45,889 nucleotides of DNA from a virus, in UHGV virus genome UHGV-1375786, one strand, 5' to 3'. The notes beneath the pieces are model-generated. The model searched no databases, was not told where the DNA came from, and worked only from the letters and a program-made list of their open reading frames with translations. This document shows, piece by piece, positions 1,640-30,236 of the stretch (positions within the stretch are counted from its first letter, which is position 1; each line of letters begins with the position of its first letter). The translations under genes and the position numbers were made by a program.

Positions 1640-3267
1640 TTTAAGTTCCTCATAAATCTCATTCTCTTCATTGCTGATGACAGGATATTCCTGACTGATG
1701 AGTTCATTCGCAAACCAGACCATGAGCCGCCACCAGAAAGCCTGATATTGGATGGATTTTCAGGGTCCAACTCTATTGGTGAATGCCTGTTTTCAGATAT
1801 CGCAATGATGACCTCGTAAGTAAATTTATCCGGCGTAACCTGAATTGAGTTCGAATCGGCAGCGGAAATTATTTTGCTGATTCTGTCGCGACAAAGTTTG
1901 TTTTTGACAACTGAAATATAAGGCTTTTCAGTAAAAGCCTTTGATTCAATGCATTTTTTAACCTTCATAACAATGTTGTCCCACTCAGTGTTTTCAAGGC
2001 CATCAAACTCTGCTTCTCCCTCCAGATAATCACGCAGGTCGTACATGCTGTTCATTACGGTTGCATACGCCCATTCAATATGGCATTCCTTTATCTGCGG
2101 AGTCATGCCATTGCGCGATGATAAATCAGCAAATGCACAAAGAGTCGCAAGCTCTATAACCATCTGAGCAGAGCGAGGGCCGACGCTACCAATTACACCG
2201 GGAATATTGCTTGACTTGTCTATGCGCCTGCGCAACATCTCATAGTATTTCGAAACACCATCATTGGCATATTCCACATTAAAAAAACCACCTGGGATTC
2301 TGGGTTTCCATTCGTTTATTATTGTTTTATTAATTTCCATGTCCGGCGTATTCTTAAGTTCCGGCATGTGCTCATGACCTTTAATGAAAAGAGATCTGCC
2401 CATGCCACCATCCTTTTCCCATCTCCGTACTGTTGCAATGCCCTGCTCTGGGGTAACGGTTATGAACGGAATGAACCTTACGTTCTGTATTCCCTTATCG
2501 TTAATGCACAGGTCATAACATTGCATGGCGTGATTTAATCTTCTCCCAATGTCATGATTCATTTTTGCAAGACGACGATAATCTATGGCGCCATCTGATT
2601 CACCGATGCGAGGTATCATCCACCCCTGAGCCTGCGCAGCAGAGAGTATTAACTTCGGGTTTTGAGCACTAGCCAGCTTCTCCTGAAACAATGTAACAAC
2701 AGGTGACTCAGGAAACCAGTCACCACTAATGGACGTCCTGAACCATGAGGCTGTTTCACCAAGCGGAGAGCGCGTATCTGACCAAGCCTGAAGATGTTCA
2801 GGGCAGTCATCTGCTATATAAAGCAAGAAACCATCAGCCTCAATGAGACGCTCTTTAATTTGTCGCAATGATGTTACGGTGCTTTTTGATACGCGCGGAG
2901 TGATTCCGAGATTCTCTGAGTAAGCCTTAACAAAATCAGATGGAGCACCCTTACCTGCGCCAGAACGACCAACAATAAATGTCCCAGTGGCACACTTGTT
3001 TTTTGCGCTTGGGCCAATTATGTATCTACCAGCCATCACCTGAGCAAGCGCGATAGCACCAGGTAATCTGTACACCTCTCCTTCTTCGCGATTTTCAAAA
3101 TGATTCTCTATCTCGCACATGAATTCACCAAGAGAGCCGGGAGGTATTTTGTATCCATCACGGAATTCTGGTACGTCAATTTCATCAAGTGGATTTCCAG
3201 AATCAGGCTTACCTGTTGGCTTCAGAGATTCCTTTAGCTCAATGATTTGCTTTGAATCAGTCATCAC
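1636..3267 (-). CDS. P-loop NTPase-domain protein, 543 aa, function unknown. The Walker A GRSGAGKGA is of the adenylate/cytidylate-kinase type (GKG); LLYIADD is a candidate Walker B
   Basis: Long ORF in an operon with ATGA overlaps on both sides. The glycine-rich P-loop is seen directly. No confident family assignment. Confidence 0.7.
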   Translation of the reverse strand: MMTDSKQIIELKESLKPTGKPDSGNPLDEIDVPEFRDGYKIPPGSLGEFMCEIENHFENREEGEVYRLPGAIALAQVMAGRYIIGPSAKNKCATGTFIVGRSGAGKGAPSDFVKAYSENLGITPRVSKSTVTSLRQIKERLIEADGFLLYIADDCPEHLQAWSDTRSPLGETASWFRTSISGDWFPESPVVTLFQEKLASAQNPKLILSAAQAQGWMIPRIGESDGAIDYRRLAKMNHDIGRRLNHAMQCYDLCINDKGIQNVRFIPFITVTPEQGIATVRRWEKDGGMGRSLFIKGHEHMPELKNTPDMEINKTIINEWKPRIPGGFFNVEYANDGVSKYYEMLRRRIDKSSNIPGVIGSVGPRSAQMVIELATLCAFADLSSRNGMTPQIKECHIEWAYATVMNSMYDLRDYLEGEAEFDGLENTEWDNIVMKVKKCIESKAFTEKPYISVVKNKLCRDRISKIISAADSNSIQVTPDKFTYEVIIAISENRHSPIELDPENPSNIRLSGGGSWSGLRMNSSVRNILSSAMKRMRFMRNLK

Positions 3268-3542
3268 AGGACTCTCCAGATATACATGAATTTTTTGCTT
3301 CCACTGGTTTTTGTTTTGATGACCATTCCTTGTTCATTGGCTATTCTGGTGCAATAAGACCTGAACATGTTGTGCGTCATGCGGTACTTTTCATCGATCA
3401 CTACAGAACAGCAATTCTCCTTTTCTCCTTTTATGATTTCGCTTGAGTATTCATTCTCGAAGTGAATACCAACCAGTTCGCCAGATTTCATTGAAGATAA
3501 CAGCTCGTATGCAAACATTAATTTAGTGCCATCTGGGTACAT
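3264..3542 (-). CDS. hypothetical protein (92 aa), first gene of the leftward cassette
   Basis: Strong RBS AAGGAGGG 4 nt upstream of the ATG. Stop overlaps the next start (ATGA). Confidence 0.55.
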   Translation of the reverse strand: MYPDGTKLMFAYELLSSMKSGELVGIHFENEYSSEIIKGEKENCCSVVIDEKYRMTHNMFRSYCTRIANEQGMVIKTKTSGSKKFMYIWRVL

Positions 3543-3637
3543 TCAGCCCTCCTTTTGTTATGTAAAAAATATACATGAATATTATGTACACGTCAACGAC
3601 AGCAAGATGACGTTCTTACTTACACATCTTTACAGTA

Positions 3638-4020
3638 TTTACCGGAGTTACCGGGTTTTTATCGGGAAGTTACCGACGCAAGTTATTGATAACTATAGAG
3701 TTACCGGAGTTACCGGATTTTTTGCATATGAGAACAGAAAAATTTTAAAAATGAGAATTTGTATCAAAATTGAATAAAATGCTTATAAATCATATATATA
3801 ATAAGAAATTAAACCCTTTTTATATATGTAAGGAGTTACCAGGTAAATCCGGTAACTCGTCTGAGAGCCTTGCTACATGCGGGTTTCAAGTTACCGGACG
3901 ACCGGTAACTCCGGTAACTTTTTAATGGTGAAAACGACATAAAAGCAACGTAAGTAATTGATTTATAATAGTTACCGGTTTTTGCACATTGAGTTACCGG
4001 ATTTTTCGAGATTCGGTAAA
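3638..4020. repeat. Iteron array: about 12 copies of AGTTACCGG / CCGGTAACT (direct and inverted, including GTTACCGG-acga-CCGGTAAC) flanking an AT-rich core
   Basis: Copies located by eye include 3646, 3668(var), 3699, 3708, 3834(var), 3849(inv), 3889, 3902(inv), 3911(inv), 3970 and 3992. Confidence 0.8.
3721..3830. other. AT tract of about 110 bp, more than 85% AT by eye (candidate DNA unwinding element)
   Basis: Sequence such as ...ttttaaaaatgagaatttgtatcaaaattgaataaaatgcttataaatcatatatataataag..., bracketed by iterons. Confidence 0.6.
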
Positions 4021-4026
4021 TTAATA

Positions 4027-4055
4027 TTGACGTAGAATCACCACTGATGTAGATT
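4027..4055 (+). promoter_or_regulatory. Candidate sigma70 promoter TTGACG-17-TAGATT for the rightward early operon. It overlaps two inverted copies of the AATCTACRTCA box
   Basis: Hexamers and spacing read directly. The first ORF starts at 4086 with an RBS GAGGGTGA. Confidence 0.4.
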
Positions 4056-4085
4056 GGACTCATCGGAACAAACGAGGGTGAAGAT

Positions 4086-4232
4086 ATGAAAATCAAAGAT
4101 CGTGAAGAATTTGAAGATGCACAGGCCATGGCGCGCATTGCAGTTAATAGTCAGAACAACAGCATTCCTGCTGATGCATTCTGGAACGCTGCAATGCAGG
4201 CTTTAGCTTCAGCGTATGGATTAAGCAAATGA
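4086..4232 (+). CDS. hypothetical small protein (48 aa)
   Basis: RBS GAGGGTG. ATGA overlap with the next ORF. Confidence 0.5.
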   Translation: MKIKDREEFEDAQAMARIAVNSQNNSIPADAFWNAAMQALASAYGLSK

Positions 4233-4324
4233 CAGGCGCAACATTCGAGATTATCGCCAGTCTGGTTATCGCGGCATTCATCATTATCGCAGTGGCAGTT
4301 TCAAAATCAGGGTATAAGGAGTAA
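4229..4324 (+). CDS. hypothetical small hydrophobic protein (31 aa, one TM helix)
   Basis: ATGA coupling. The peptide is hydrophobic: IIASLVIAAFIIIAVAV. Confidence 0.35.
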   Translation: MTGATFEIIASLVIAAFIIIAVAVSKSGYKE

Positions 4325-4328
4325 CAAA

Positions 4329-4409
4329 ATGAGCAACTGGCATAACGAACACATCATGCAGTGGTATCGTCGTCGCATTAAAGCAATCATTAACTCTTGC
4401 GAGGCTTAA
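4329..4409 (+). CDS. hypothetical micro-protein (26 aa)
   Basis: RBS AAGGAG 8 nt upstream. Tight gene packing. Confidence 0.3.
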   Translation: MSNWHNEHIMQWYRRRIKAIINSCEA

Positions 4410-4412
4410 CAA

Positions 4413-4595
4413 ATGGCAAAGACAATCTATCGTCGCGAGAAGCTGGAACAGGAACTCGGTCACGTTGGCGCGCAGAACTTTATGAGCAAGCAAGCACGCA
4501 ATGCGATGGAATCTGTGCGCGTAAATCGCGTTGTGCGAGTGTTTAATGGCGAAGGTAAGCGAAGAGTAATGGATGAGCTTATTGTTGTGTTTTGA
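4413..4595 (+). CDS. hypothetical protein (60 aa)
   Basis: ORF in the packed early operon. Confidence 0.45.
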   Translation: MAKTIYRREKLEQELGHVGAQNFMSKQARNAMESVRVNRVVRVFNGEGKRRVMDELIVVF

Positions 4596-4631
4596 ACACG
4601 ATTCAGCACGTTTATTTTGACTGGTGATGAT

Positions 4632-4865
4632 ATGGCAAAAGTAAAAACATATGAGTTCTGGTTTGTGCAAAACAAAATGTACGCATCCAGAACAATCAAG
4701 CGAGCATGCTGGTGGAATAAGTGGCTATTGTTGTCAGGATGTCTGGTGCTGGCAAAGTGCAAATTCAAAGCGGTTGACATCACTGATGAAGATGCACTGA
4801 AAATCGCCAAGATTGAGTTTGAAGAAGATGGTTATTACGAAGAAATTATGGGGATTAGGGTATGA
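4632..4865 (+). CDS. hypothetical protein (about 77 aa; start at MAKVKTYEF)
   Basis: GGTGA RBS before the internal ATG. The stop overlaps the next start. Confidence 0.45.
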   Translation: MAKVKTYEFWFVQNKMYASRTIKRACWWNKWLLLSGCLVLAKCKFKAVDITDEDALKIAKIEFEEDGYYEEIMGIRV

Positions 4866-8929: not shown

Positions 8930-9050
8930 ATGAGTTCAATCTACATCACAGCAATATCTACGTCAACATTTATTATTGTTGTTGATAAATCTGCATCACC
9001 GCGCTTGACCAATCTACACCGAGCGCATAGTATAATCTACATCAGGCTTA
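8930..9050 (+). promoter_or_regulatory. Five tandem copies of the AATCTAC(A/G)TCA box (8933, 8955, 8987, 9008, 9036) plus TTGACC and TATAAT elements
   Basis: Copies read directly. They lie upstream of the ORF at 9065. Confidence 0.55.
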
Positions 9051-11125: not shown

Positions 11126-12056
11126 CGCAAGGCTTCCTCAACCGCGCATATCGCAGAGCCTGACCGACCCGTTAGGCGCTGCGTCTCGCCTGTCGAAGAT
11201 GGACAAGGTGATAACTCGCAAATACAAACAACTAAGGACTCGTGCGCTTGAGTTGTTTCGCGCTATTCCGAATAGCCAGGCTAACGCAGAATCAAGCGAC
11301 CTGTATTTCTATGATTTCAGCAGCGCGCGTGCCGCTACTTTCATGGATGAGTTACAGGCGCTGATTGACGAGATTCTACTTGAAGGTGATGACTTCGGTC
11401 ACGGTAGAATGTGGGCTAACGTGTTCATCGGTGATGCGTATCAGGCTGGAACACAGAAGGCTAACTCTGAACTGTCAAGGCTGTCTCCTGTTTATGCCGA
11501 GCAAAGACCGATTGCCGCGATACTCTACAGTGAGCCTTACCTGAATAGACTTCAACTGGCCTATGCCGCTGGCTATTCCGACTGGCGCGGATTGAGTGAT
11601 TATTCCCGCCAGCAACTGGCATCTGTCATTATGGAAGGCATTGCTCGTGGCGCTAATCCTCGAGACGTTGAAGCTGACATCGTTAAGCGTGTGGATGTGT
11701 CTCACAGCTATGCTAAGCAGCTGGCGCAAACGGAAATCACCGGAACGCTACGGCAGGCAAACAGGCGAGAAGTCATTGAAGCTCGCGAGGAATTGGGTAT
11801 TGAGACGGTGATGCTGTGGCAGTCGGCATTAATGCGCACAACTCGCCAGACACACGCCGCGCGACATGGACGGTTTTTTGCGCCAGAAGAGATTGACACG
11901 TTCTATAGTGAGAATGGCAACAGATATAATTGCCACTGCGCGCAAACTCCAGCATTGCTAATGGATGGTAAACCAGTCATTCTTGAGTCTTCACAGGAAA
12001 GGCTTGATAAGCAGCGCGAAGCATGGCAATCGGCAAACAAAAAGCCCTCTAAGTGA
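11106..12056 (+). CDS. head morphogenesis protein, Mu gpF / SPP1 gp7-like (start uncertain; alternatives at 11025 and 11199)
   Basis: Position after the portal. MuF-like core [14 protein letters not shown]...[17 protein letters not shown]. Confidence 0.7.
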
Positions 12057-12070
12057 GGGCTTTGATTTAT
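12040..12070. terminator. Stem-loop AAGCCCTCtaagtGAGGGCTT overlapping the MuF stop codon
   Basis: Hairpin and T-rich tail read directly. Confidence 0.45.
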
Positions 12071-13799: not shown

Positions 13800-13845
13800 G
13801 TGTATCTACATCATAGCCTCGCCATCCAATCTACGTCAATACCTG
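13800..13845 (+). promoter_or_regulatory. Two direct AATCTACRTCA boxes (13803, 13831) followed by GTCAATACC and TGtGATAGAAT (extended -10-like) upstream of the lysis cassette
   Basis: Read directly. The lysis ORF starts at 13884 with an AGGAGG RBS. Confidence 0.5.
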
Positions 13846-14983: not shown

Positions 14984-15475
14984 ATGATGTCGATTCTCGC
15001 TAAATATTGGCGACCGCTGGCAATTATTATAATTGTTGCCGCTGGTGCGCTGTGGGCAGCCAATAAAGTATGCAGCTATGGCGAACAGCGATACGCAGAA
15101 GGCAAGGCCCAAGCAATCTCAGACCAGAAGGCCGCAGACAAAAAAGAGGAGCAACGACGCAATGCAGAACTGCAAAAGATTCAGGCCGACGCACAGCAAA
15201 GGATTGACGCTGCGCGCAATGATGCTGTCAATGCTGCTGCTAAGTCTGGCAGGTTGCAGCAACAACTCGCAAATATCCGCAAGCAGCTCGTCGGATATTC
15301 CACCGCTGAGTCCATTGGCAATCCAGCCGCAGAAACCGGAGTTTTGCTTGCCCAGCTGCTCTCAGAATCTGTCGAGAGAAATCGACAGCTGGCAGATTAC
15401 GCTGACAGGGCAAGAGAGGCAGGATTGATGTGTGAGGCGCAGTACAATTCGCTGCGTAATAAAAAAGCCCCGTAA
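14984..15475 (+). CDS. i-spanin (Rz-like)
   Basis: N-terminal TM (PLAIIIIVAAGALWAA). Coiled-coil, Gln/Ala-rich periplasmic domain. RBS GGAG. An o-spanin is embedded. Confidence 0.7.
   Translation: MMSILAKYWRPLAIIIIVAAGALWAANKVCSYGEQRYAEGKAQAISDQKAADKKEEQRRNAELQKIQADAQQRIDAARNDAVNAAAKSGRLQQQLANIRKQLVGYSTAESIGNPAAETGVLLAQLLSESVERNRQLADYADRAREAGLMCEAQYNSLRNKKAP
15219..15428 (+). CDS. o-spanin (Rz1-like lipoprotein) embedded in the +1 frame of Rz
   Basis: Lipobox LLLSLAGC followed by a Pro-rich mature part. Fully embedded architecture. Confidence 0.65.
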   Translation: MMLSMLLLSLAGCSNNSQISASSSSDIPPLSPLAIQPQKPEFCLPSCSQNLSREIDSWQITLTGQERQD

Positions 15476-15492
15476 TGGGGCTTGTGTTTACT
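15461..15492. terminator. Bidirectional terminator AAGCCCCgtaatGGGGCTT flanked by an A-run and a T-rich tail
   Basis: Hairpin read directly, between convergent operons. Confidence 0.6.
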
Positions 15493-17424: not shown

Positions 17425-17462
17425 TCTACATCACTTAGTCAATACTTATTGACGTAGATTGT
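17425..17462. promoter_or_regulatory. Inverted pair of boxes TTCTACATCA ... TGACGTAGATT separated by about 16 bp, with GTCAATAC in between
   Basis: Read directly. Lies between divergent operons (17389 leftward, 17489 rightward). Confidence 0.5.
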
Positions 17463-20051: not shown

Positions 20052-21931
<1,880 letters not shown>

Positions 21932-21933
21932 TA

Positions 21934-23004
21934 ATGGAAAAGATTATTTTTACCAAAGACTTGGTAGCCAACTCCGCAGTAGTGGCTGACCAGTGGAAAC
22001 ATCTTACCATCGACCGCAAGGTGTTCTGCAATGCAGAAGCTGAGCTGGCGAAAACTTACGGCGTTAACGCCACCGCACTGGTAACGAAAGATTACTGGCG
22101 CGATGTGGACAACGTCACTACCCGCGTTTTTCGTAACGAAGCTGGTCAGGACATGATGGCTGACCTGATGGGTATCGCGGCAAACATCAACATCGGTAAG
22201 ACCGTGGCAATCAGCCGCATCGCTTCTGATGCTGGTAAAGTCGTCCGCACTCTGTCTGGTCAGGAGCCGGAAGATTTGGATAAAACTCGCTACGATTACA
22301 CTGGCGATGTGATTCCAATCTTCAAAACTGGCTACAGCCGCGAATGGCGTGAACTGCTGGGTATGCAGTCTGAAGGTTTTGACCCACTACTGGACGATCA
22401 GGCTAACGTCACCTTTAACCTGCGTTCCGATATGGCGCAGTACCTGCTGACTGGCGACCAGACTCTGAACGTGAACGGCGTTTACACTGGTTACGGTATC
22501 ACCAACCACCCGAACACTGTTCAGGTTAACCTGAACGTTTCCGGTGGCCTGAATATCGACCTGCAAACCGCAACGCCAGACGAAATCGTGAAATTCTTCA
22601 ATCAGGATTTCCAGGCTATTCTGGATGCGCAGAACGTATTTGAGCAGGTAACTCTGTGGGTTTCCCCGGCAGTACGTCGCAGCTTCATGCGTCCGTATTC
22701 TGATGCGGCTGGCTTCAAAGGCGGCACCGTTGAGCAGTACATCACGCAGTTTGGCAACGGTCGCATCGGCAAGATCGGCACCAACTTCCTGCTGACCGGC
22801 AACCATTTCGTTGGTTACGTTCGCAACGACATGTACATCCGTCCGCGTGTTGCTCAGCCTGTTTCCACCTACGCGGCTGCCCGTGCCAACCCGCACGATA
22901 ACTTTAACTTCCTCGTGTGGTCAGCTTTTGGCCTGCAAATCCGTAAGGATTTCACTGGTAAGTCCAAAGTGTTCAACGGCTACGGTACGCAAACTCCGCT
23001 GTAA
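21934..23004 (+). CDS. major capsid protein
   Basis: 356 aa, follows the scaffold/decoration genes. Strong terminator downstream. High-expression codon look. Confidence 0.7.
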   Translation: MEKIIFTKDLVANSAVVADQWKHLTIDRKVFCNAEAELAKTYGVNATALVTKDYWRDVDNVTTRVFRNEAGQDMMADLMGIAANINIGKTVAISRIASDAGKVVRTLSGQEPEDLDKTRYDYTGDVIPIFKTGYSREWRELLGMQSEGFDPLLDDQANVTFNLRSDMAQYLLTGDQTLNVNGVYTGYGITNHPNTVQVNLNVSGGLNIDLQTATPDEIVKFFNQDFQAILDAQNVFEQVTLWVSPAVRRSFMRPYSDAAGFKGGTVEQYITQFGNGRIGKIGTNFLLTGNHFVGYVRNDMYIRPRVAQPVSTYAAARANPHDNFNFLVWSAFGLQIRKDFTGKSKVFNGYGTQTPL

Positions 23005-23048: not shown

Positions 23049-23246
23049 ATGGCTAAATACGAAGTCATCGCACGCGGAATCTTTGTTAAAGAGAAAGGCA
23101 AGATTCGTGAATTGCAGCTTGGCGAGGTGATTACCGAACCAGACGAGCATCTCCTACCAAAGCTGCGCGTTATGCCAGAGCTGAAAAAGTCTTTCGAAGT
23201 CGCAACCCCACAACAAAAGACGACAAAGAAAAAGAAAGCAGAGTAA
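23049..23246 (+). CDS. hypothetical protein (65 aa) with Lys-rich tail
   Basis: RBS GAGGTGA. Flanked by two terminators. Confidence 0.45.
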   Translation: MAKYEVIARGIFVKEKGKIRELQLGEVITEPDEHLLPKLRVMPELKKSFEVATPQQKTTKKKKAE

Positions 23247-23249
23247 AAA

Positions 23250-23277
23250 GAAAAGCCCCATGAAGGGGCTTTTTATT
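23250..23277. terminator. Bidirectional terminator AGCCCCatgaaGGGGCT with A-run/T-run
   Basis: Read directly. Confidence 0.7.
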
Positions 23278-23278
23278 G

Positions 23279-23815
23279 CTACAGACGCATAGGCATAACA
23301 ACAACCTTCGCAGTCTCTCCAGATGGCGCACTAAGGCAGCAAACTGCGGCATCTGTGCTCCCATTCAGTTCAAATTTGACACCGCAGAATTTAGGATTAA
23401 ACAGTTTCGCCACTTTCTCAATATCGACAAGGTAGCCAGCATTAAATCCAATCTCCTCTGCTGCTTTCGCTTCCTTCGGTATCACGCGATCAATATCAGG
23501 GAATCGACCATCAATCTCTTCGCAGATACCAGCACCAACCATCTTGCCAGCTTTATCATGATACGTTGCAATTTTCGACTCGGTATCAATGATGGCGTAG
23601 TCATAGCGTTTTGTTGGAGATTTGCCAATCTTGATAATCACATTTTCTGTCAGTTTGTTGTCATGACTGCCACCAATGAATGCGCGATGACCGTCAGTTG
23701 ATGAAATGCGACCATCAGTCATGAAGCAAATACCGTTAAGGTAATATCGCACATCATTGCGAGCCTGAAATATTAATGCTGATTCAAGTAATAATTTGCT
23801 GATTTTTAGTTTCAT
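23279..23815 (-). CDS. DNA polymerase III beta sliding-clamp-like mini protein (about 178 aa)
   Basis: C-terminus AKVVVMPMRL matches the E. coli DnaN C-terminus (...AAYVVMPMRL). Also RFPDIDRVIPK (cf. KFPDYRRVLPK) and EIGFNAGYLVD (cf. EIGFNVSYVLD). Confidence 0.65.
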   Translation of the reverse strand: MKLKISKLLLESALIFQARNDVRYYLNGICFMTDGRISSTDGHRAFIGGSHDNKLTENVIIKIGKSPTKRYDYAIIDTESKIATYHDKAGKMVGAGICEEIDGRFPDIDRVIPKEAKAAEEIGFNAGYLVDIEKVAKLFNPKFCGVKFELNGSTDAAVCCLSAPSGETAKVVVMPMRL

Positions 23816-24012
23816 CACTTCACCTTAATCATGTGTTGTTTTGCAACCTTCATGCATTCTTCAAAAATGCCGCCCTTCTTTGCGCTCTGATTGCGTCTGT
23901 AATACTGGATTGCCGCATCAATTGCCATCTGGTCGATTTCAGGCAGTTTGGCGCGAAGTTGTTTTTCGATGAATTGCTCAGCGTTCATTGTTCTCGCCTG
24001 CCATAAATTCAA
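23815..24012 (-). CDS. hypothetical protein (57-65 aa; start ambiguous between 24012 and 23988)
   Basis: ORF. Its stop overlaps the clamp-like start (TGATG). Confidence 0.35.
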   Translation of the reverse strand: MNLWQARTMNAEQFIEKQLRAKLPEIDQMAIDAAIQYYRRNQSAKKGGIFEECMKVAKQHMIKVK

Positions 24013-24205
24013 TGAATTGTTTTGTGCACTTCAGGCAAAGCCACTTGCATTCCTGAATGTTAATCCCTCCGCAGTCTTGGCCAATACTCCCCTTGTATGC
24101 GACGGTAAGTTCTCCGCGCTCACCATCAATATACTCATCAGGATTTTTGGTTTCATATCCGCATCTGTCACACTTATGGATTGTTATGGTTATTTTCGCC
24201 ATCAC
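23978..24205 (-). CDS. zinc-ribbon protein (75 aa; CDRC ... CLKC)
   Basis: Two CxxC pairs. ATGA overlap with the upstream ParB-like gene. Confidence 0.5.
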   Translation of the reverse strand: MMAKITITIHKCDRCGYETKNPDEYIDGERGELTVAYKGSIGQDCGGINIQECKWLCLKCTKQFIEFMAGENNER

Positions 24206-25011
24206 ATCTTCTCCAGAATTGCCATAACCTCATGAATATCAGCAACAGGAATCTGAATAAACTCCTCATCCTCTGCTGCCACATGACCAGCTGGAAGAAT
24301 TACATGGTCGGCTGGCTTCAATAACTCAACCAGACGGTCTACTGGCTTAATCTTTTTCGATTTCAGCACCTTCGCTGTTACCTTGTCCTTGCCTTGTGCT
24401 TTAGCTTCTTCAACAGCCTCGTCGATAACTTTAACCGCATCATCGCCATGTTCGCGCGTTACTGCTACGGCATTTGCATAGCTGATTTGCCCGGCACTGA
24501 TGCGCGCTTTTACTTCCGCTGGAACATCACCCAGTGACAGATGCATTTGCACGTCAGATACCGAACGACCTACCTTCTTAGCAATTTCTTCATTAGTCCA
24601 GCCAAATCCTTTCAGTCGTGTGTAAGCCTTTGCGCGCTCAAACGGGTCAAGTTGCTTGCCCTGACTGGATGACACCATAAAGGCGATTTTGTCAGCCTCG
24701 TCGCCAGTGAAATCCTTGCACTCAATACGAACGATTGGCGCTCCACGCTCAATGGCACGCAATGCACCGAGATAGCGATGCTGACCATCAAGAATGCGGA
24801 TTCCCTTCTCGTCAGGAATAACTGTTAATGCTGGTAATGGCTGACCTGATTCCCAGCACTGCGCGAAATATTCCACATGCTGTTCGTCAGCTTCGCGGAT
24901 GTTGTATCCCGGCTCAAGATAGATTTGCTCCACTGGCACGAGATAGGTTTTGTTGACAGCGATGCCGTTACGCGTTTCTTTGTCTGAATAGATTTTGCTG
25001 AGTGTTTTCAT
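24202..25011 (-). CDS. ParB/sulfiredoxin-like nuclease-domain protein (about 269 aa)
   Basis: ILDGQHRYLGALRAIERG is a DGQHR ParB/Srx box. N-terminal ParB-like N-domain, C-terminal helical and lysine-rich region. Confidence 0.65.
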   Translation of the reverse strand: MKTLSKIYSDKETRNGIAVNKTYLVPVEQIYLEPGYNIREADEQHVEYFAQCWESGQPLPALTVIPDEKGIRILDGQHRYLGALRAIERGAPIVRIECKDFTGDEADKIAFMVSSSQGKQLDPFERAKAYTRLKGFGWTNEEIAKKVGRSVSDVQMHLSLGDVPAEVKARISAGQISYANAVAVTREHGDDAVKVIDEAVEEAKAQGKDKVTAKVLKSKKIKPVDRLVELLKPADHVILPAGHVAAEDEEFIQIPVADIHEVMAILEKM

Positions 25012-25012
25012 C

Positions 25013-25204
25013 TCATTCACCACTTTCTTCTAATAAAAGTTCATAGTTTGCAATGTATGCATTGGCCAGATGATACATTAGTTCAGCAGCGCCGCGTTCT
25101 GGACCGCTGAAGTCATCAATAGAACCAGCGTTGCTGATTGCATCAACACAATCACGGAAATCAATCACGGCATTACGGAACATACAGTAGTACATGTTTG
25201 CCAT
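25013..25204 (-). CDS. hypothetical protein (63 aa)
   Basis: RBS AGGAATAATC. Coupled to flanking genes. Confidence 0.5.
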   Translation of the reverse strand: MANMYYCMFRNAVIDFRDCVDAISNAGSIDDFSGPERGAAELMYHLANAYIANYELLLEESGE

Positions 25205-25206
25205 GA

Positions 25207-25830
25207 TTATTCCTCGCCACCAGAATTAACAATGTCGTAAAATTGACCATAGGTGATCTGCTTGAAATTATCCGGTATCGTTACCTTGCCGTGGCCTTCA
25301 TCGTTTGTATTTGGCACAGCAAAAATCAGGCAATCATCCTTTTGCGGGTGTTTACCGCCATAAGTAGACAGCATTGCAAAACCAAATCCGCGACCAGATT
25401 TCTCTCCGATTCCGGTGCGTGCGATGCCATAATGGTTAACAATGTAGTCCTTCCATTCTGGCAGTAACTTTAATTTCTCGTTTGCCTCTCGCATCACTGC
25501 GTCCAGCTTTTTGTTGTATTCCCGCCCGTCCTTTGTATTTCCTTTTCCGCGAGCCACAATTACACGCTGACCTTCCCAAAGGTCTTCACGCTTTATTGTC
25601 ACTTGGCACGGAAATTCAAACTGCTTACTCCACACAAAGCTCTCAAGTAAGCCACCACCGACACCACCCCAGCTGCGTGTTGTAGTGAAAGCTACAGCAC
25701 CAACCTTTTTCATGGCGTCGCCGAGAATTTCATTGCGCTGATTCAAAATGTCGTCATATGCGTCGATGACCTTCTTTACGTCTGCGCCTTCAACCATGTA
25801 ATAGTCATAATGTTTTGCGTTACTGCTCAT
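25207..25830 (-). CDS. hypothetical protein (about 207 aa; start MSSNAKHYDYY)
   Basis: RBS GAGGTGA before the ATG at 25830. Gly-rich motif WGGVGGG. Confidence 0.55.
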   Translation of the reverse strand: MSSNAKHYDYYMVEGADVKKVIDAYDDILNQRNEILGDAMKKVGAVAFTTTRSWGGVGGGLLESFVWSKQFEFPCQVTIKREDLWEGQRVIVARGKGNTKDGREYNKKLDAVMREANEKLKLLPEWKDYIVNHYGIARTGIGEKSGRGFGFAMLSTYGGKHPQKDDCLIFAVPNTNDEGHGKVTIPDNFKQITYGQFYDIVNSGGEE

Positions 25831-25858
25831 CTCATCACCTCTAACATTTATTGTTGTT

Positions 25859-25900
25859 TCTACATCACTAACTATAAACTCCACGCCAATCTACGTCAAC
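25859..25900 (+). promoter_or_regulatory. Two direct boxes (TTCTACATCAC, AATCTACGTCAAC) followed by TGcTAAAAT (extended -10-like)
   Basis: Read directly, in a divergent intergenic region. The rightward ORF starts at 25947. Confidence 0.5.
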
Positions 25901-25946
25901 TGGAATATGCTAAAATCATGCTAATCAAACAACAGGAGATTTAAAC

Positions 25947-26066
25947 ATGGGTTCAACAAGCGGTCCGTCTCGTTCACGCGCCACTGGCAATGCAAAAACT
26001 GGCGGCAAAACTGGCATAGTGAAGCCAAATGGTTCCACCCGCTCACCATCGCGCGGTAAGAAATAA
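25947..26066 (+). CDS. small highly basic Gly/Ser/Arg-rich protein (39 aa)
   Basis: RBS AACAGGAG. TAATG overlap with the next gene. Confidence 0.4.
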   Translation: MGSTSGPSRSRATGNAKTGGKTGIVKPNGSTRSPSRGKK

Positions 26067-26506
26067 TGTTCGGCGCAGACGTTGCCATCATTATCATGTA
26101 TGTGCTGGGTTTCGCTTGCACTGGCATGGTCGCGTTTCTGGTGTTCATTCCGGCAATGGTGATGTCTGTGTATCTTGGATGGGTGTTTGTTGATTCATTT
26201 CCCGCCGAATATCTGTATTACCTTGCGCAGTCTATGGTCTGGTTATTCCCGGCTATTGCGCTGCGCAAAAGTACAAAGATGGCGCTCTGCGTGCTGACGA
26301 TGAGCCTTTACGAATGGCTGGTAGCGATAGAGTCATTCGTATGGGAATTTATCACGCCTGTAGAAACGCCGCTTCATGCGCAGTACGCATTTATTATTAT
26401 CGGCATCCATCTGTTCATCCTTTCCATCACTTTTAAATGGGGCGGCGAAATTGGACATTATTCTTGGCGTGGTCGCCATCGTTTTTTCGCTGATTCAAAT
26501 CTATAA
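26066..26506 (+). CDS. integral membrane protein (146 aa, about 4 TM)
   Basis: Multiple hydrophobic helices. Confidence 0.55.
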   Translation: MFGADVAIIIMYVLGFACTGMVAFLVFIPAMVMSVYLGWVFVDSFPAEYLYYLAQSMVWLFPAIALRKSTKMALCVLTMSLYEWLVAIESFVWEFITPVETPLHAQYAFIIIGIHLFILSITFKWGGEIGHYSWRGRHRFFADSNL

Positions 26507-26823: not shown

Positions 26824-27196
26824 AGAACTGGTTAGCCAGATGGCATCGCGCGGGATGACCATCACCACGACAGATGCGTCTGGCATTCTGTGCCTTGCGG
26901 CATCAATCAGCGAATGCCTTGAGCTGAACTATCCAAACGATGAATGCCGACAAAATGCGATCATGCTGTGGGCTTCCATCCTGATTAGCGCAAACACAGC
27001 AGGTCGCTACGTTACCAGTCAGAGCGCACCATCTGGCGCATCACAATCATTCGCGTATGGCAGCAAGCCGTGGGTGGCACTGTACAATCAGATGAAGCTA
27101 CTGGACACAGCCGGATGCACTGGCGATTTAGTGGAAGACCCTGATGGAAGCGGTAAGCCGTGGTTTGCGGTTGTGCGTGGGAGTAAGTGCAAATGA
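26804..27196 (+). CDS. putative head-tail connector / head completion protein (about 130 aa)
   Basis: Position in the head-completion module. The start at MAAPTPEEL overlaps the upstream stop. Confidence 0.45.
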   Translation: MAAPTPEELVSQMASRGMTITTTDASGILCLAASISECLELNYPNDECRQNAIMLWASILISANTAGRYVTSQSAPSGASQSFAYGSKPWVALYNQMKLLDTAGCTGDLVEDPDGSGKPWFAVVRGSKCK

Positions 27197-27816
27197 AGAG
27201 AGTGATGGCTGTATATCAGATTGAAAATACAATAACCAAAGAGATTTATGTTGGTTCAACAATAAACTACATCAATAGAATTGCTGTGCATCGATACAAA
27301 ATGAGGAATGGCATGCACAGCCCACACAGGTTGTATAATGATGGAGCAAAATATGGCGAGTCATTATTCAGATTTTCAATTCTTGAAATTGTTAACGATG
27401 AATCAATGCTGCTTAGTAGAGAGCAATTCTACATAGACAAGCTAAATCCTCAATATAATATAGCAAAAATAGCCGGTACGTGCTTGGGAGTTCAGGCAAC
27501 AGATGTGGCTAAAGCTAAAATGAGCAAAAGCAGGATGGGAAAGAATAACTGCTGGCATGGGAAAACACCACCTTGCTCTATGGGCCCAAAAACAGAAGAA
27601 ACAAGAAAGAAAATATCGCAATCAAGAATTGGCGAGAAAAACCCAATGTTCGGCAGGACTCCAAAACACGCTAAGTTAACTGATGACCAGGTTAGGGAGG
27701 TGAGAACCAGACTAGCAAATGGAGAGCGCTCACAATCACTTGCTGATGAGTTTGGCGTGTCTAAAGGTGCTATCCAGCACATCAAGAAAAATCGCTCATA
27801 TAGGAATGTTTTATGA
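27193..27816 (+). CDS. GIY-YIG homing endonuclease (free-standing, with NUMOD3-like repeats and a C-terminal HTH)
   Basis: VYQIEN...EIYVGSTINYINR is a GIY-YIG motif. SRMGKNNCWHGKT and SRIGEKNPMFGRT are NUMOD3-like. AT-rich relative to neighbouring genes. ATGA overlaps at both ends. Confidence 0.85.
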   Translation: MKRVMAVYQIENTITKEIYVGSTINYINRIAVHRYKMRNGMHSPHRLYNDGAKYGESLFRFSILEIVNDESMLLSREQFYIDKLNPQYNIAKIAGTCLGVQATDVAKAKMSKSRMGKNNCWHGKTPPCSMGPKTEETRKKISQSRIGEKNPMFGRTPKHAKLTDDQVREVRTRLANGERSQSLADEFGVSKGAIQHIKKNRSYRNVL

Positions 27817-28925: not shown

Positions 28926-28948
28926 AAAGCCGCACTTGGCGGCTTTTA
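28926..28948 (+). terminator. Rho-independent terminator GCCGCacttgGCGGC + T4
   Basis: Read directly. Confidence 0.75.
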
Positions 28949-30204: not shown

Positions 30205-30236
30205 GAAAAAGCCCCGAAAGGGGCTTTGTTTTATTC
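30205..30236. terminator. Bidirectional terminator AAGCCCCgaaaGGGGCTT
   Basis: Read directly. Confidence 0.7.

Follow-up and report, generated by a model that had tools for sequence, protein, structure and literature searches.

A leftward cassette amid the head genes of a Skatevirus-type phage reads as a mosaic of an orphan ParB, a shortened beta clamp and exchangeable cargo

Results

The virus genome UHGV-1375786 was analysed as one stretch of 45,889 nucleotides (nt), termed the window throughout. Its ORF listing places a block of six co-directional minus-strand open reading frames (ORFs) at positions 23279 to 25830. An earlier inspection of the letters alone (the sequence-only reading) had taken this block for an insertion into the structural genes combining a clamp-like protein, a zinc ribbon, a ParB/Srx-type nuclease-domain protein and a 207-amino acid (aa) protein of no assigned family. 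Compared with its relatives, the block is best read as a mosaic cassette, in which a core gene for an orphan ParB-family protein and a dispensable gene for a shortened beta clamp are combined with swappable cargo, and not as a new system. The ORF listing bore out the six leftward genes between the capsid and the head-tail genes. The assignments as clamp, zinc ribbon and ParB, as well as the DNA-metabolism flavour of the block, hold. From right to left the genes are:

25830–25207, minus strand: 207-aa EaC/DUF5420 protein, accessory cargo; ATG start with GAGGTGA upstream
25204–25013, minus strand: 63-aa protein, variable cargo; PHROG match phrog_8760
25011–24202, minus strand: putative orphan ParB-family protein, 269 aa (273 aa if the GTG at 25023 is used)
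24202–23978, minus strand: 74-aa zinc-ribbon protein, CxxC...CxxC, cysteine pairs read from the sequence
23988–23815, minus strand: 57-aa protein; PHROG match phrog_4439
23815–23279, minus strand: short beta-clamp homologue, 178 aa; assigned by phrog_3007, fold and DnaN alignment

Taking the longest starts, the raw listing spans 23279 to 25884; the starts used here are those backed by homologues. The alternative GTG start of the 207-aa gene at 25884 lies upstream of the predicted promoter. With the starts used, neighbouring genes are separated by gaps of at most 2 nt or overlap by 1 or 11 nt, a spacing compatible with translational coupling.

Conserved Core and Exchangeable Cargo in Related Phages

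By megablast the region was found closest to Skatevirus-like siphophages of Salmonella, Escherichia and Klebsiella (86–91% identity), among them ECO95 1-6-1, HC6, Bas79, KFS-SE2 and seszw. The annotation of Bas79 lists a helicase, a primase, an SSB and an exonuclease VIII-type gene, and neither a DNA polymerase nor a ParA. Judging by its sequence, the source phage is a virulent Skatevirus-type siphophage without a DNA polymerase gene of its own. The core of the block (clamp, 57-aa and ParB genes) occupied this position in all Skatevirus/Roufvirus-like genomes examined and had matches in well over 100 deposited genomes, where its annotation already reads “DNA polymerase III beta subunit” and “ParB-like partition protein”. 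The order is constant in the relatives: ParB, a variable slot, the 57-aa gene and the clamp-like gene. The 57-aa gene always adjoins the clamp gene in this clade (13 of 13 complete Skatevirus/Roufvirus-like loci in IMG/VR).

Around this core the cargo varies. The slot filled by the zinc ribbon in the window holds a DNA methyltransferase in Bas79, ZCEC08 and HC6 and a 120-aa protein in KFS-SE2, which carries in addition a front gene annotated as anti-restriction. In seszw a 92-aa gene replaces the 207-aa gene. ZCEC08 has the 63-aa gene, for which Bas79, KFS-SE2 and seszw show no annotation. Among other deposited phages the zinc ribbon was found only in Segz_1 and Sa179lw, and it matched no family in Pfam, PHROG and TIGR profile searches. 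PADLOC matched no defence-system protein. Presence and absence in related phages had been named as the way to judge whether the block is one unit: the core is indeed kept as a set, and the cargo slots vary, so that the block as a whole is not. Likewise, the block had been expected neither to be conserved throughout the phage group nor to carry an assigned routine function. The first expectation fell, since the core is conserved in the group; the second stood, since no routine function has been assigned.

The divergent promoter and ribosome-binding site region in front of the cassette (25831–25946, 115 bp) is almost invariant in Bas79, ZCEC08, KFS-SE2 and seszw, while the first gene behind it differs among these four relatives. 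Therefore, cargo is swapped behind a fixed expression signal.

Unequal Constraint and Dispensability of ParB and Clamp

The Skatevirus seszw was taken through a CRISPR-driven genome reduction, in which it lost up to 20% of its genome over hundreds of serial lytic transfers (PMC9825161). About 70 genomes were deposited from this experiment, and gene essentiality was inferred from these mutant genomes. Using at least 99% identity as cutoff, 72 records were found for the capsid gene, 70 for the ParB gene and 47 for the clamp gene. All reduced seszw genomes listed contain the ParB gene; in seszw_250L, a viable mutant, genes 16 (clamp) and 17 (small protein) are gone and ParB is kept. Thus, the clamp and 57-aa genes are deletable and ParB is kept in essentially all reduced seszw mutants.

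Constraint was compared by counting synonymous and nonsynonymous codon differences. For ParB, the four relatives gave 71/4, 61/6, 69/2 and 71/2, corresponding to 98–99% protein identity at about 91% nucleotide identity. The major capsid protein gave 59/5 and 50/8. For the clamp the four comparisons yielded 36/20, 38/15, 25/14 and 32/16, a ratio of roughly 2:1; it evolves faster than ParB or the capsid protein. By these codon counts ParB is as constrained as the major capsid protein and more constrained than the neighbouring genes. Its capsid-like constraint, together with its retention in the reduced seszw genomes, suggests a core function of ParB in lytic growth.

These data bear on the proposal that the block is one integrated system, in which ParB marks or loads phage DNA together with the clamp, the zinc ribbon and the 207-aa protein for DNA modification, partition-like positioning or anti-defence. 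Several observations fit it: the order ParB, 57-aa gene, clamp is conserved in Skatevirus/Roufvirus-like phages, the two main genes are neighbours also in Serratia phage Eta, a more distant phage, all genes are tightly packed under one promoter, and in relatives the cassette holds a methyltransferase or a gene annotated as anti-restriction. However, viable seszw mutants lose the clamp and 57-aa genes and keep ParB, ParB and clamp are under several-fold different constraint, and the zinc ribbon, the 63-aa gene and EaC are patchy even inside the genus. Moreover, neither partner is found in P22-like phages, the source of EaC.

The genomic surroundings of short clamps elsewhere were examined using a degenerate DNA pattern for DVRYYLNG, which retrieved IMG/VR loci falling into 40 non-redundant clusters. 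Adjacency of ParB and clamp was confined to the Skatevirus/Roufvirus-like clade, with clamps at least 67% identical, and Serratia phage Eta, where the short clamp adjoins a helicase gene and ParB. Within the 40 clusters, neighbouring ParB helix-turn-helix (HTH) hits came only from the two close-clade clusters whose neighbours were scanned. The 37 other short-clamp clusters had no ParB nearby, which likewise speaks against an integrated system. The commonest neighbours in IMG/VR were CII, DnaB, O, RecT and HTH regulators; ArdA was also found. Named phages gave a similarly varied picture. In the lambdoid Hafnia phage yong1 the short clamp lies between cII and an O-like replication gene (locus 3001–3537). 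In Lumpael it stands beside primase, helicase and Dam, flanked by two DNA methyltransferases (locus 2316–4524), and in Vibrio phage R19R near a Dam-type methyltransferase and SSB. In Dhillonvirus EP23 it adjoins a nucleotide-modification associated (Nmad5) protein (locus 3507–4865); the neighbouring gp07 is not a ParB. In Bcep43 it stands alone on the opposite strand amid head genes (locus 3498–4079). Conversely, orphan ParBs are present in many phages without a short clamp. Taken together, the neighbours elsewhere, the unequal essentiality and the unequal constraint argue for DNA-metabolism genes co-located in one cassette, and an integrated ParB-clamp system is quite unlikely. The claim of a single functional unit in the sequence-only reading has to be given up on the same grounds: the clamp and 57-aa genes can be deleted with ParB kept, and constraint differs sharply.

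The Shortened Beta Clamp Homologue

Searching PDB sequences with phmmer, enterobacterial DnaN was matched at residues 136–286 and 313–366, the latter being its extreme C-terminus. Mapped on E. coli K-12 DnaN, the phage protein joins domain II (about 128–250) to the C-terminal half of domain III (313–366) at 37% identity; DnaN domain I and residues of about 251–312 have no counterpart. The Pfam families DNA_pol3_beta_2 and DNA_pol3_beta_3 scored 17.6 and 16.8 bits (cut-off 27) and TIGR00663 34 bits (cut-off 137.65). Compared with the three-domain DnaN of about 366 aa, the phage protein is thus a 178-aa protein scoring below the family cut-offs. It matched phrog_3007 with an E-value (E) of 2e-62. 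The RefSeq name attached to this family (PHROG 3007), “RusA-like Holliday junction resolvase”, was considered and rejected: no RusA Pfam hit was obtained at E<=0.1, and sequence and fold are those of a beta clamp. The misnaming of short clamps as RusA is propagating, with RefSeq NC_054641, NC_016566 and NC_005342 among the affected records.

Residue lists for the clamp-binding pocket and the ring interface were taken from a 2024 review (PMC11139829). In the alignment, 16 of the 18 residues of the pocket (subsites I and II) are identical to E. coli DnaN, the exceptions being L177 to A and V344 to T, and the C-terminal VVMPMRL is shared with DnaN. None of the ring-interface residues I78, F106, R103, I272, L273, E298 and E304 was aligned in the phage protein. 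Because domain I and every known dimer-interface residue are absent, the protein, as judged from this alignment, cannot close a canonical two-subunit ring.

A single-sequence search against 1.84 billion representatives yielded 1847 clusters (50% identity) at E<=0.001, and the best-scoring full-length matches among them were mostly 170–210 aa long. From a deep alignment of 104 diverse short clamps of 169–209 aa an AlphaFold2 monomer model was built with a predicted local distance difference test score (pLDDT) of 96.7 and a predicted template modelling score (pTM) of 0.91. A model from a shallow alignment (24 close homologues, at least 70% identical) reached a pLDDT of 50 and was discarded. Comparing the retained model with the PDB by Foldseek, the 50 best hits listed were all bacterial DnaN/beta clamps at probability 1.00, E. 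coli ranking first. Predicted viral proteins of about 180–200 aa matched it at a template modelling score (TM) of 0.8–0.9. Averaged over the 104 short clamps, agreement with the query is 71% at the 18 pocket positions and 34% at all positions, and the 14 most conserved columns include 10 pocket positions (permutation test, p <1e-5).

Two other explanations for such a protein were weighed. First, it could be a true processivity ring, in which copies of one and a half domains oligomerise (four copies, equal to six domains, or two copies that swap half-domains to complete one) and are loaded to tether host DNA polymerase III (Pol III). The shortened beta* form of the E. coli clamp is an analogue for such an arrangement. 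The conserved polymerase-binding pocket, the presence of the gene in replication modules of polymerase-less phages and the uniform length class of the best-scoring matches among the 1847 clusters would agree with a homo-oligomeric ring, which is a serious rival to a clamp acting through its pocket. Nevertheless we consider it unlikely: the protein has neither domain I nor any known interface residue, the model of the monomer is by itself compact and confident (pTM 0.91), no clamp-loader gene is found in the phage, and the clamp gene is dispensable. Second, the gene could be a decaying, functionless fragment of a captured dnaN. This is hardly credible. The same truncation architecture recurs across very diverse phages, the frame is intact with synonymous changes about twice as frequent as nonsynonymous ones, the fold is predicted at high confidence and the pocket columns are selectively conserved; against these observations stand dispensability in the laboratory and a protein evolving faster than ParB or capsid.

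The Orphan ParB-Family Protein

The ParB-family HTH was recognised by PF17762 (HTH_ParB, 44 bits, cut-off 22.6) and the KorB domain by PF08535 (26.4 bits, cut-off 22.3, residues 141–187). The best solved match was Thermus Spo0J (1vz0, E 6.7e-13), aligned over residues 44–206 and thus spanning the N-terminal fold and the HTH. The protein further matched the ParB family phrog_1033 (E 3e-91); TIGR00180 gave 38.9 bits (cut-off 58.45). From these matches we class it as a full-length orphan ParB of canonical order, with N-terminal fold, HTH and C-terminal region. Its DGQHR string aligns to box II of Spo0J (GERR) and reads G80-Q81-H82-R83 in the numbering of the 273-aa form, which is the general GxxR form. 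Box III reads SSSQGKQL, where known CTPases have ENLQR. A GxxR box II has been described as the general, invariant P motif of the ParB fold, the nucleotide specificity of such folds as not predictable from sequence, and orphan ParBs without a ParA-binding motif as widespread among phages and mobile elements (bioRxiv 10.1101/2025.10.10.680097). ParB-like regulators are on record (PMC12409273, PMC10770331).

The DGQHR string had led the sequence-only reading to a ParB/Srx-type nuclease domain, and a DndB-like DNA-modification factor would be a related option. A weak match to TIGR03187 (E 0.007) and the methyltransferase gene adjacent in some relatives could be quoted for either. However, the score of 16.1 bits stays far below the cut-off of 58.85, no dnd or ssp genes were found, and the motif pairs with box II of Spo0J as part of an alignment of 160 residues that includes the HTH as well. 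The methyltransferase gene belongs to a variable slot and is missing from the window. The DndB identity was consequently rejected, and a nuclease or DndB-like factor is very improbable; a complete ParB-family protein takes the place of the nuclease domain.

Partition was considered as well. For Serratia phage Eta, whose ParB homologue comes without ParA or parS, plasmid-type maintenance of unstable lysogens has been suggested (PMC3918226). By analogy the ParB described here could be a centromere-binding protein for episomal carriage (pseudolysogeny or a plasmid-like state) that uses host factors, and its canonical domain order would suit this role. Neither the syntenic Bas79 genome nor Eta has an annotated ParA; the window was not scanned exhaustively for ParA. 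The ParA-binding motif [LIF]G[KR]G[LIF] is missing, with no G[KR]G string anywhere in the ParB protein. Episomal carriage is decidedly unlikely in view of the missing ParA gene and ParA-binding motif, of no parS-like repeat being found, and of the retention of ParB through the lytic transfers of seszw and its capsid-level constraint, which suggest a lytic role.

Of the perfect palindromes the two longest, each a single copy within coding sequence, have 18 bp (22519–22536, capsid gene) and 16 bp (21197–21212, upstream head gene). Relatives do not share the 18-mer, Bas79 and ZCEC08 alone keep the 16-mer, and both are probably due to chance.

The 207-aa Protein is an EaC Homologue

The first gene of the cassette, listed as unknown in the sequence-only reading, turned out to encode a homologue of P22 EaC (DUF5420). 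Both proteins have the same size and share 70.4% identity over residues 1–203. Homologues are named “Eac protein” or “DUF5420” in the sources, and phrog_2260 was matched; a Pfam scan gave no family at E<=0.1. The Skatevirus-type copy was found at 90% identity or above in 18 phage records only, and not in seszw; because of this narrow distribution the protein is classed as accessory cargo. In P22, EaC is encoded beside c1, and it is common in P22-like phages and enterobacterial genomes, whereas the copy in the window opens a cassette of a virulent siphophage. The 207-aa protein showed no similarity to neighbours of short clamps elsewhere (Eta gp12, the Nmad5 protein of EP23).

Promoters, Terminators and Other Leftward Cassettes

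Promoter- and terminator-like sites as a class were not enriched over shuffled sequences; the position of the best ones is non-random. The signals at the block are:

25899–25871, minus strand: sigma70-like promoter TTGACG-17-TATAGT, score 10/12
25859–25868 and 25890–25899: two copies of TCTACRTCAM, one overlapping the -35 hexamer, the other just downstream of the -10 hexamer
23273–23251: terminator hairpin AAAAGCCCC-N5-GGGGCTTTT, a 9-bp stem followed by a T-run right after the last gene

The box-type promoter region proposed from the letters alone is real, with its copies at 25859 and 25890, and so is the hairpin at 23273–23251, which likewise looks like the terminator of the rightward 65-aa ORF. 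The box TCTACRTCAM occurs in 10 exact copies in the window versus 0.34 expected by chance. The copies are clustered at promoter regions and usually paired (4028–4054, 8940–9044, 13805–13839, 17425–17458, 25859–25899, 29406, 31127, 42293 and 45778). On the promoter strand the box appears as TTGACGTAGA, which holds the -35 hexamer, and as TGATGTAGATT, which holds the TAGATT -10 hexamer. It may be either a phage-specific promoter consensus or the operator of some regulator. A direct repeat ATGCTAA-N4-ATGCTAA at 25907–25925 in the divergent promoter region occurs only once in the genome.

The best five minus-strand promoter matches between 11.5 and 31.4 kb fall without exception into leftward stretches of negative GC skew. 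Four or five of them head a leftward island, and every island closes with a GC hairpin. From these positions it follows that the genome has at least five leftward promoter-to-terminator cassettes, that the block is one of them and that it is not a singular insertion. The notion of an unusual insertion was revised for this reason, and also since the core is constant across the Skatevirus/Roufvirus-like genomes examined. The closing hairpins lie at 12041–12063, 15465–15483, 23251–23273, 28926–28946 and 30208–30227. Most of them have the form AAAGCCCC-loop-GGGGCTTT, three form a repeat family, and several seem bidirectional.

Flanking Genes

On the capsid side (PHROG matches phrog_771 and phrog_2138) and on the head-tail side the block is flanked by:

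21464–23004, plus strand: head decoration and major capsid genes, upstream flank
21934–23004, plus strand: major capsid gene, left flank
23049–23246, plus strand: conserved 65-aa ORF, left flank
25947–26506, plus strand: right flank and start of the next rightward operon, with a 39-aa basic peptide and a 146-aa membrane protein or lipoprotein

Beyond the block follow the 39-aa basic peptide, two membrane proteins and then the head-tail genes. The peptide (25947–26066, plus strand) is rich in Gly, Ser, Arg and Lys, conserved, matched by phrog_34767, and leads the rightward operon after the cassette. Amid the head-tail genes a GIY-YIG-type homing endonuclease gene was seen (209 aa, 27187–27816, plus strand), which is not found at this position in Bas79.

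Discussion

Proposed Function of the Cassette

We lean, with no great certainty, towards a mosaic cassette driven by the host RNA polymerase, in which a core ParB is combined with a clamp reduced to its binding pocket and with swappable cargo. The cassette would be expressed early from the host-RNA-polymerase promoter. ParB would bind phage DNA by its HTH, with the N-terminal GxxR nucleotide-binding fold acting as a switch. By analogy with KorB, VirB and BisD, it might organise or regulate the phage genome, with neither partition nor cutting involved. The clamp lacks domain I and the front half of domain III, together with the entire ring-closing interface, and retains the hydrophobic pocket for clamp-binding motifs. 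It may thus form a non-ring “pocket module” for motif-bearing host proteins, as adaptor or decoy. We arrive at this function because the cleft is kept, ring closure is lacking and the gene is set in replication modules of phages that seemingly have no polymerase. Candidate partners in the host are the Pol III subunits alpha, epsilon and delta, Hda, translesion polymerases and MutS/MutL. Recruiting such partners to phage DNA or titrating them would help replication and not be essential for it. Finally, cargo would be hot-swapped behind the fixed promoter and ribosome-binding site: here EaC, the 63-aa protein and the zinc ribbon, and in relatives a methyltransferase, the 120-aa protein or the gene annotated as anti-restriction.

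A number of observations weigh against this picture. Concerning ParB, the box is non-palindromic and overlaps the -35 and -10 hexamers, which does not favour a ParB operator, and no repeated palindrome that could serve as a parS-like or operator site was found in the window. Nucleotide binding by the protein is uncertain, with a GQHR box II and a box III unlike GERRxR/ENLQR. The retention of ParB in seszw is an approximate count from identity bands and not a gene-by-gene table. Concerning the clamp, the Foldseek fit on full clamps was moderate (query-normalised TM of about 0.65, root mean square deviation of 5–6 Å). Pocket retention is read from the alignment, and the model does not settle how the pocket is shaped in the shortened fold. 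The conservation of the pocket could in part reflect the way the homologues were retrieved, and the pocket is also the most conserved part of cellular DnaN. A canonical clamp-binding motif of the QLxLF type was found in no real gene among all ORFs of the window; the partner of the pocket would therefore be a host protein or a non-canonical motif. A pure decoy could moreover harm a phage that relies on host Pol III.

Short clamps were found in phages of enterobacteria, Vibrio, Burkholderia, Pseudomonas and others, typically with no phage DNA polymerase seen. Extending the pocket-module reading to all of them is tentative: pocket-only clamps may represent a widespread, unrecognised phage strategy, a soluble mimic of the clamp cleft that redirects or neutralises host partners, placed here beside an essential orphan ParB switch. 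We hold this broader view to be possible and regard it with some doubt. In bacteria, replication and repair converge on the beta clamp as their central hub, which is also an antibiotic target. If phages do routinely deploy a pocket-only clamp, this would be a new mode of host takeover, in which the hub is mimicked and not bound, and would offer a natural minimal soluble scaffold to study or screen clamp-binding motifs. An orphan ParB with capsid-level constraint that is retained in genome reduction suggests a core role of a ParB switch in lytic development, for which no description existed before.

Comparison with Known Systems

As a block, this is an ordinary, already annotated mosaic cassette of a known phage genus, whose single genes carry generic database names. 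What appears to be unstudied are two of its parts, namely the family of pocket-retaining shortened clamps and the seemingly indispensable orphan ParB of a virulent phage. In agreement with the sequence-only reading, our literature search found no published functional description of the ParB-clamp pairing; in the literature searched there was also no functional study of shortened phage clamps and no example of clamp mimicry.

Comparing the phage ParB with Spo0J, Noc and KorB, the domain order is shared, and significant matches extended to Myxococcus ParB. Clear differences are the missing ParA partner and ParA-binding motif, the box II GQHR in place of GERR and the divergent box III. Unlike these proteins, the phage ParB is encoded by a virulent phage and apparently needed for lytic growth. 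A KorB-like regulator would agree with the KorB domain above cut-off and with a 10-mer box that marks many promoters; however, the box is non-palindromic, and any link of it to ParB would be conjectural.

With bacterial DnaN (E. coli, PDB 1MMI/2POL) the short clamp shares domain II and the beta-alpha-beta-beta-beta fold of a half-domain, the closest solved structures being clamps of enterobacteria, the host group. DnaN has 366 aa and forms a ring, whereas the phage homologue has 178 aa and no interface. The other phage short clamps of phrog_3007 (Eta gp10, Bcep43 gp15, named “DNA Pol III b subunit fragment”, and EP23 gp08) belong to the same length class and have the same architecture. In most other phages the short clamp is found in the replication or early region, whereas here it lies in a leftward cassette amid head genes beside ParB. 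Other phages are known to address the host clamp itself: Gp168 of Twort blocks its channel (PMC8565349), and MuC of Mu uses it for late transcription (PMC12867686). In contrast to Gp168 and MuC, which bind the host clamp, the short clamp described here mimics part of a clamp and would be expected to bind the partners of the clamp.

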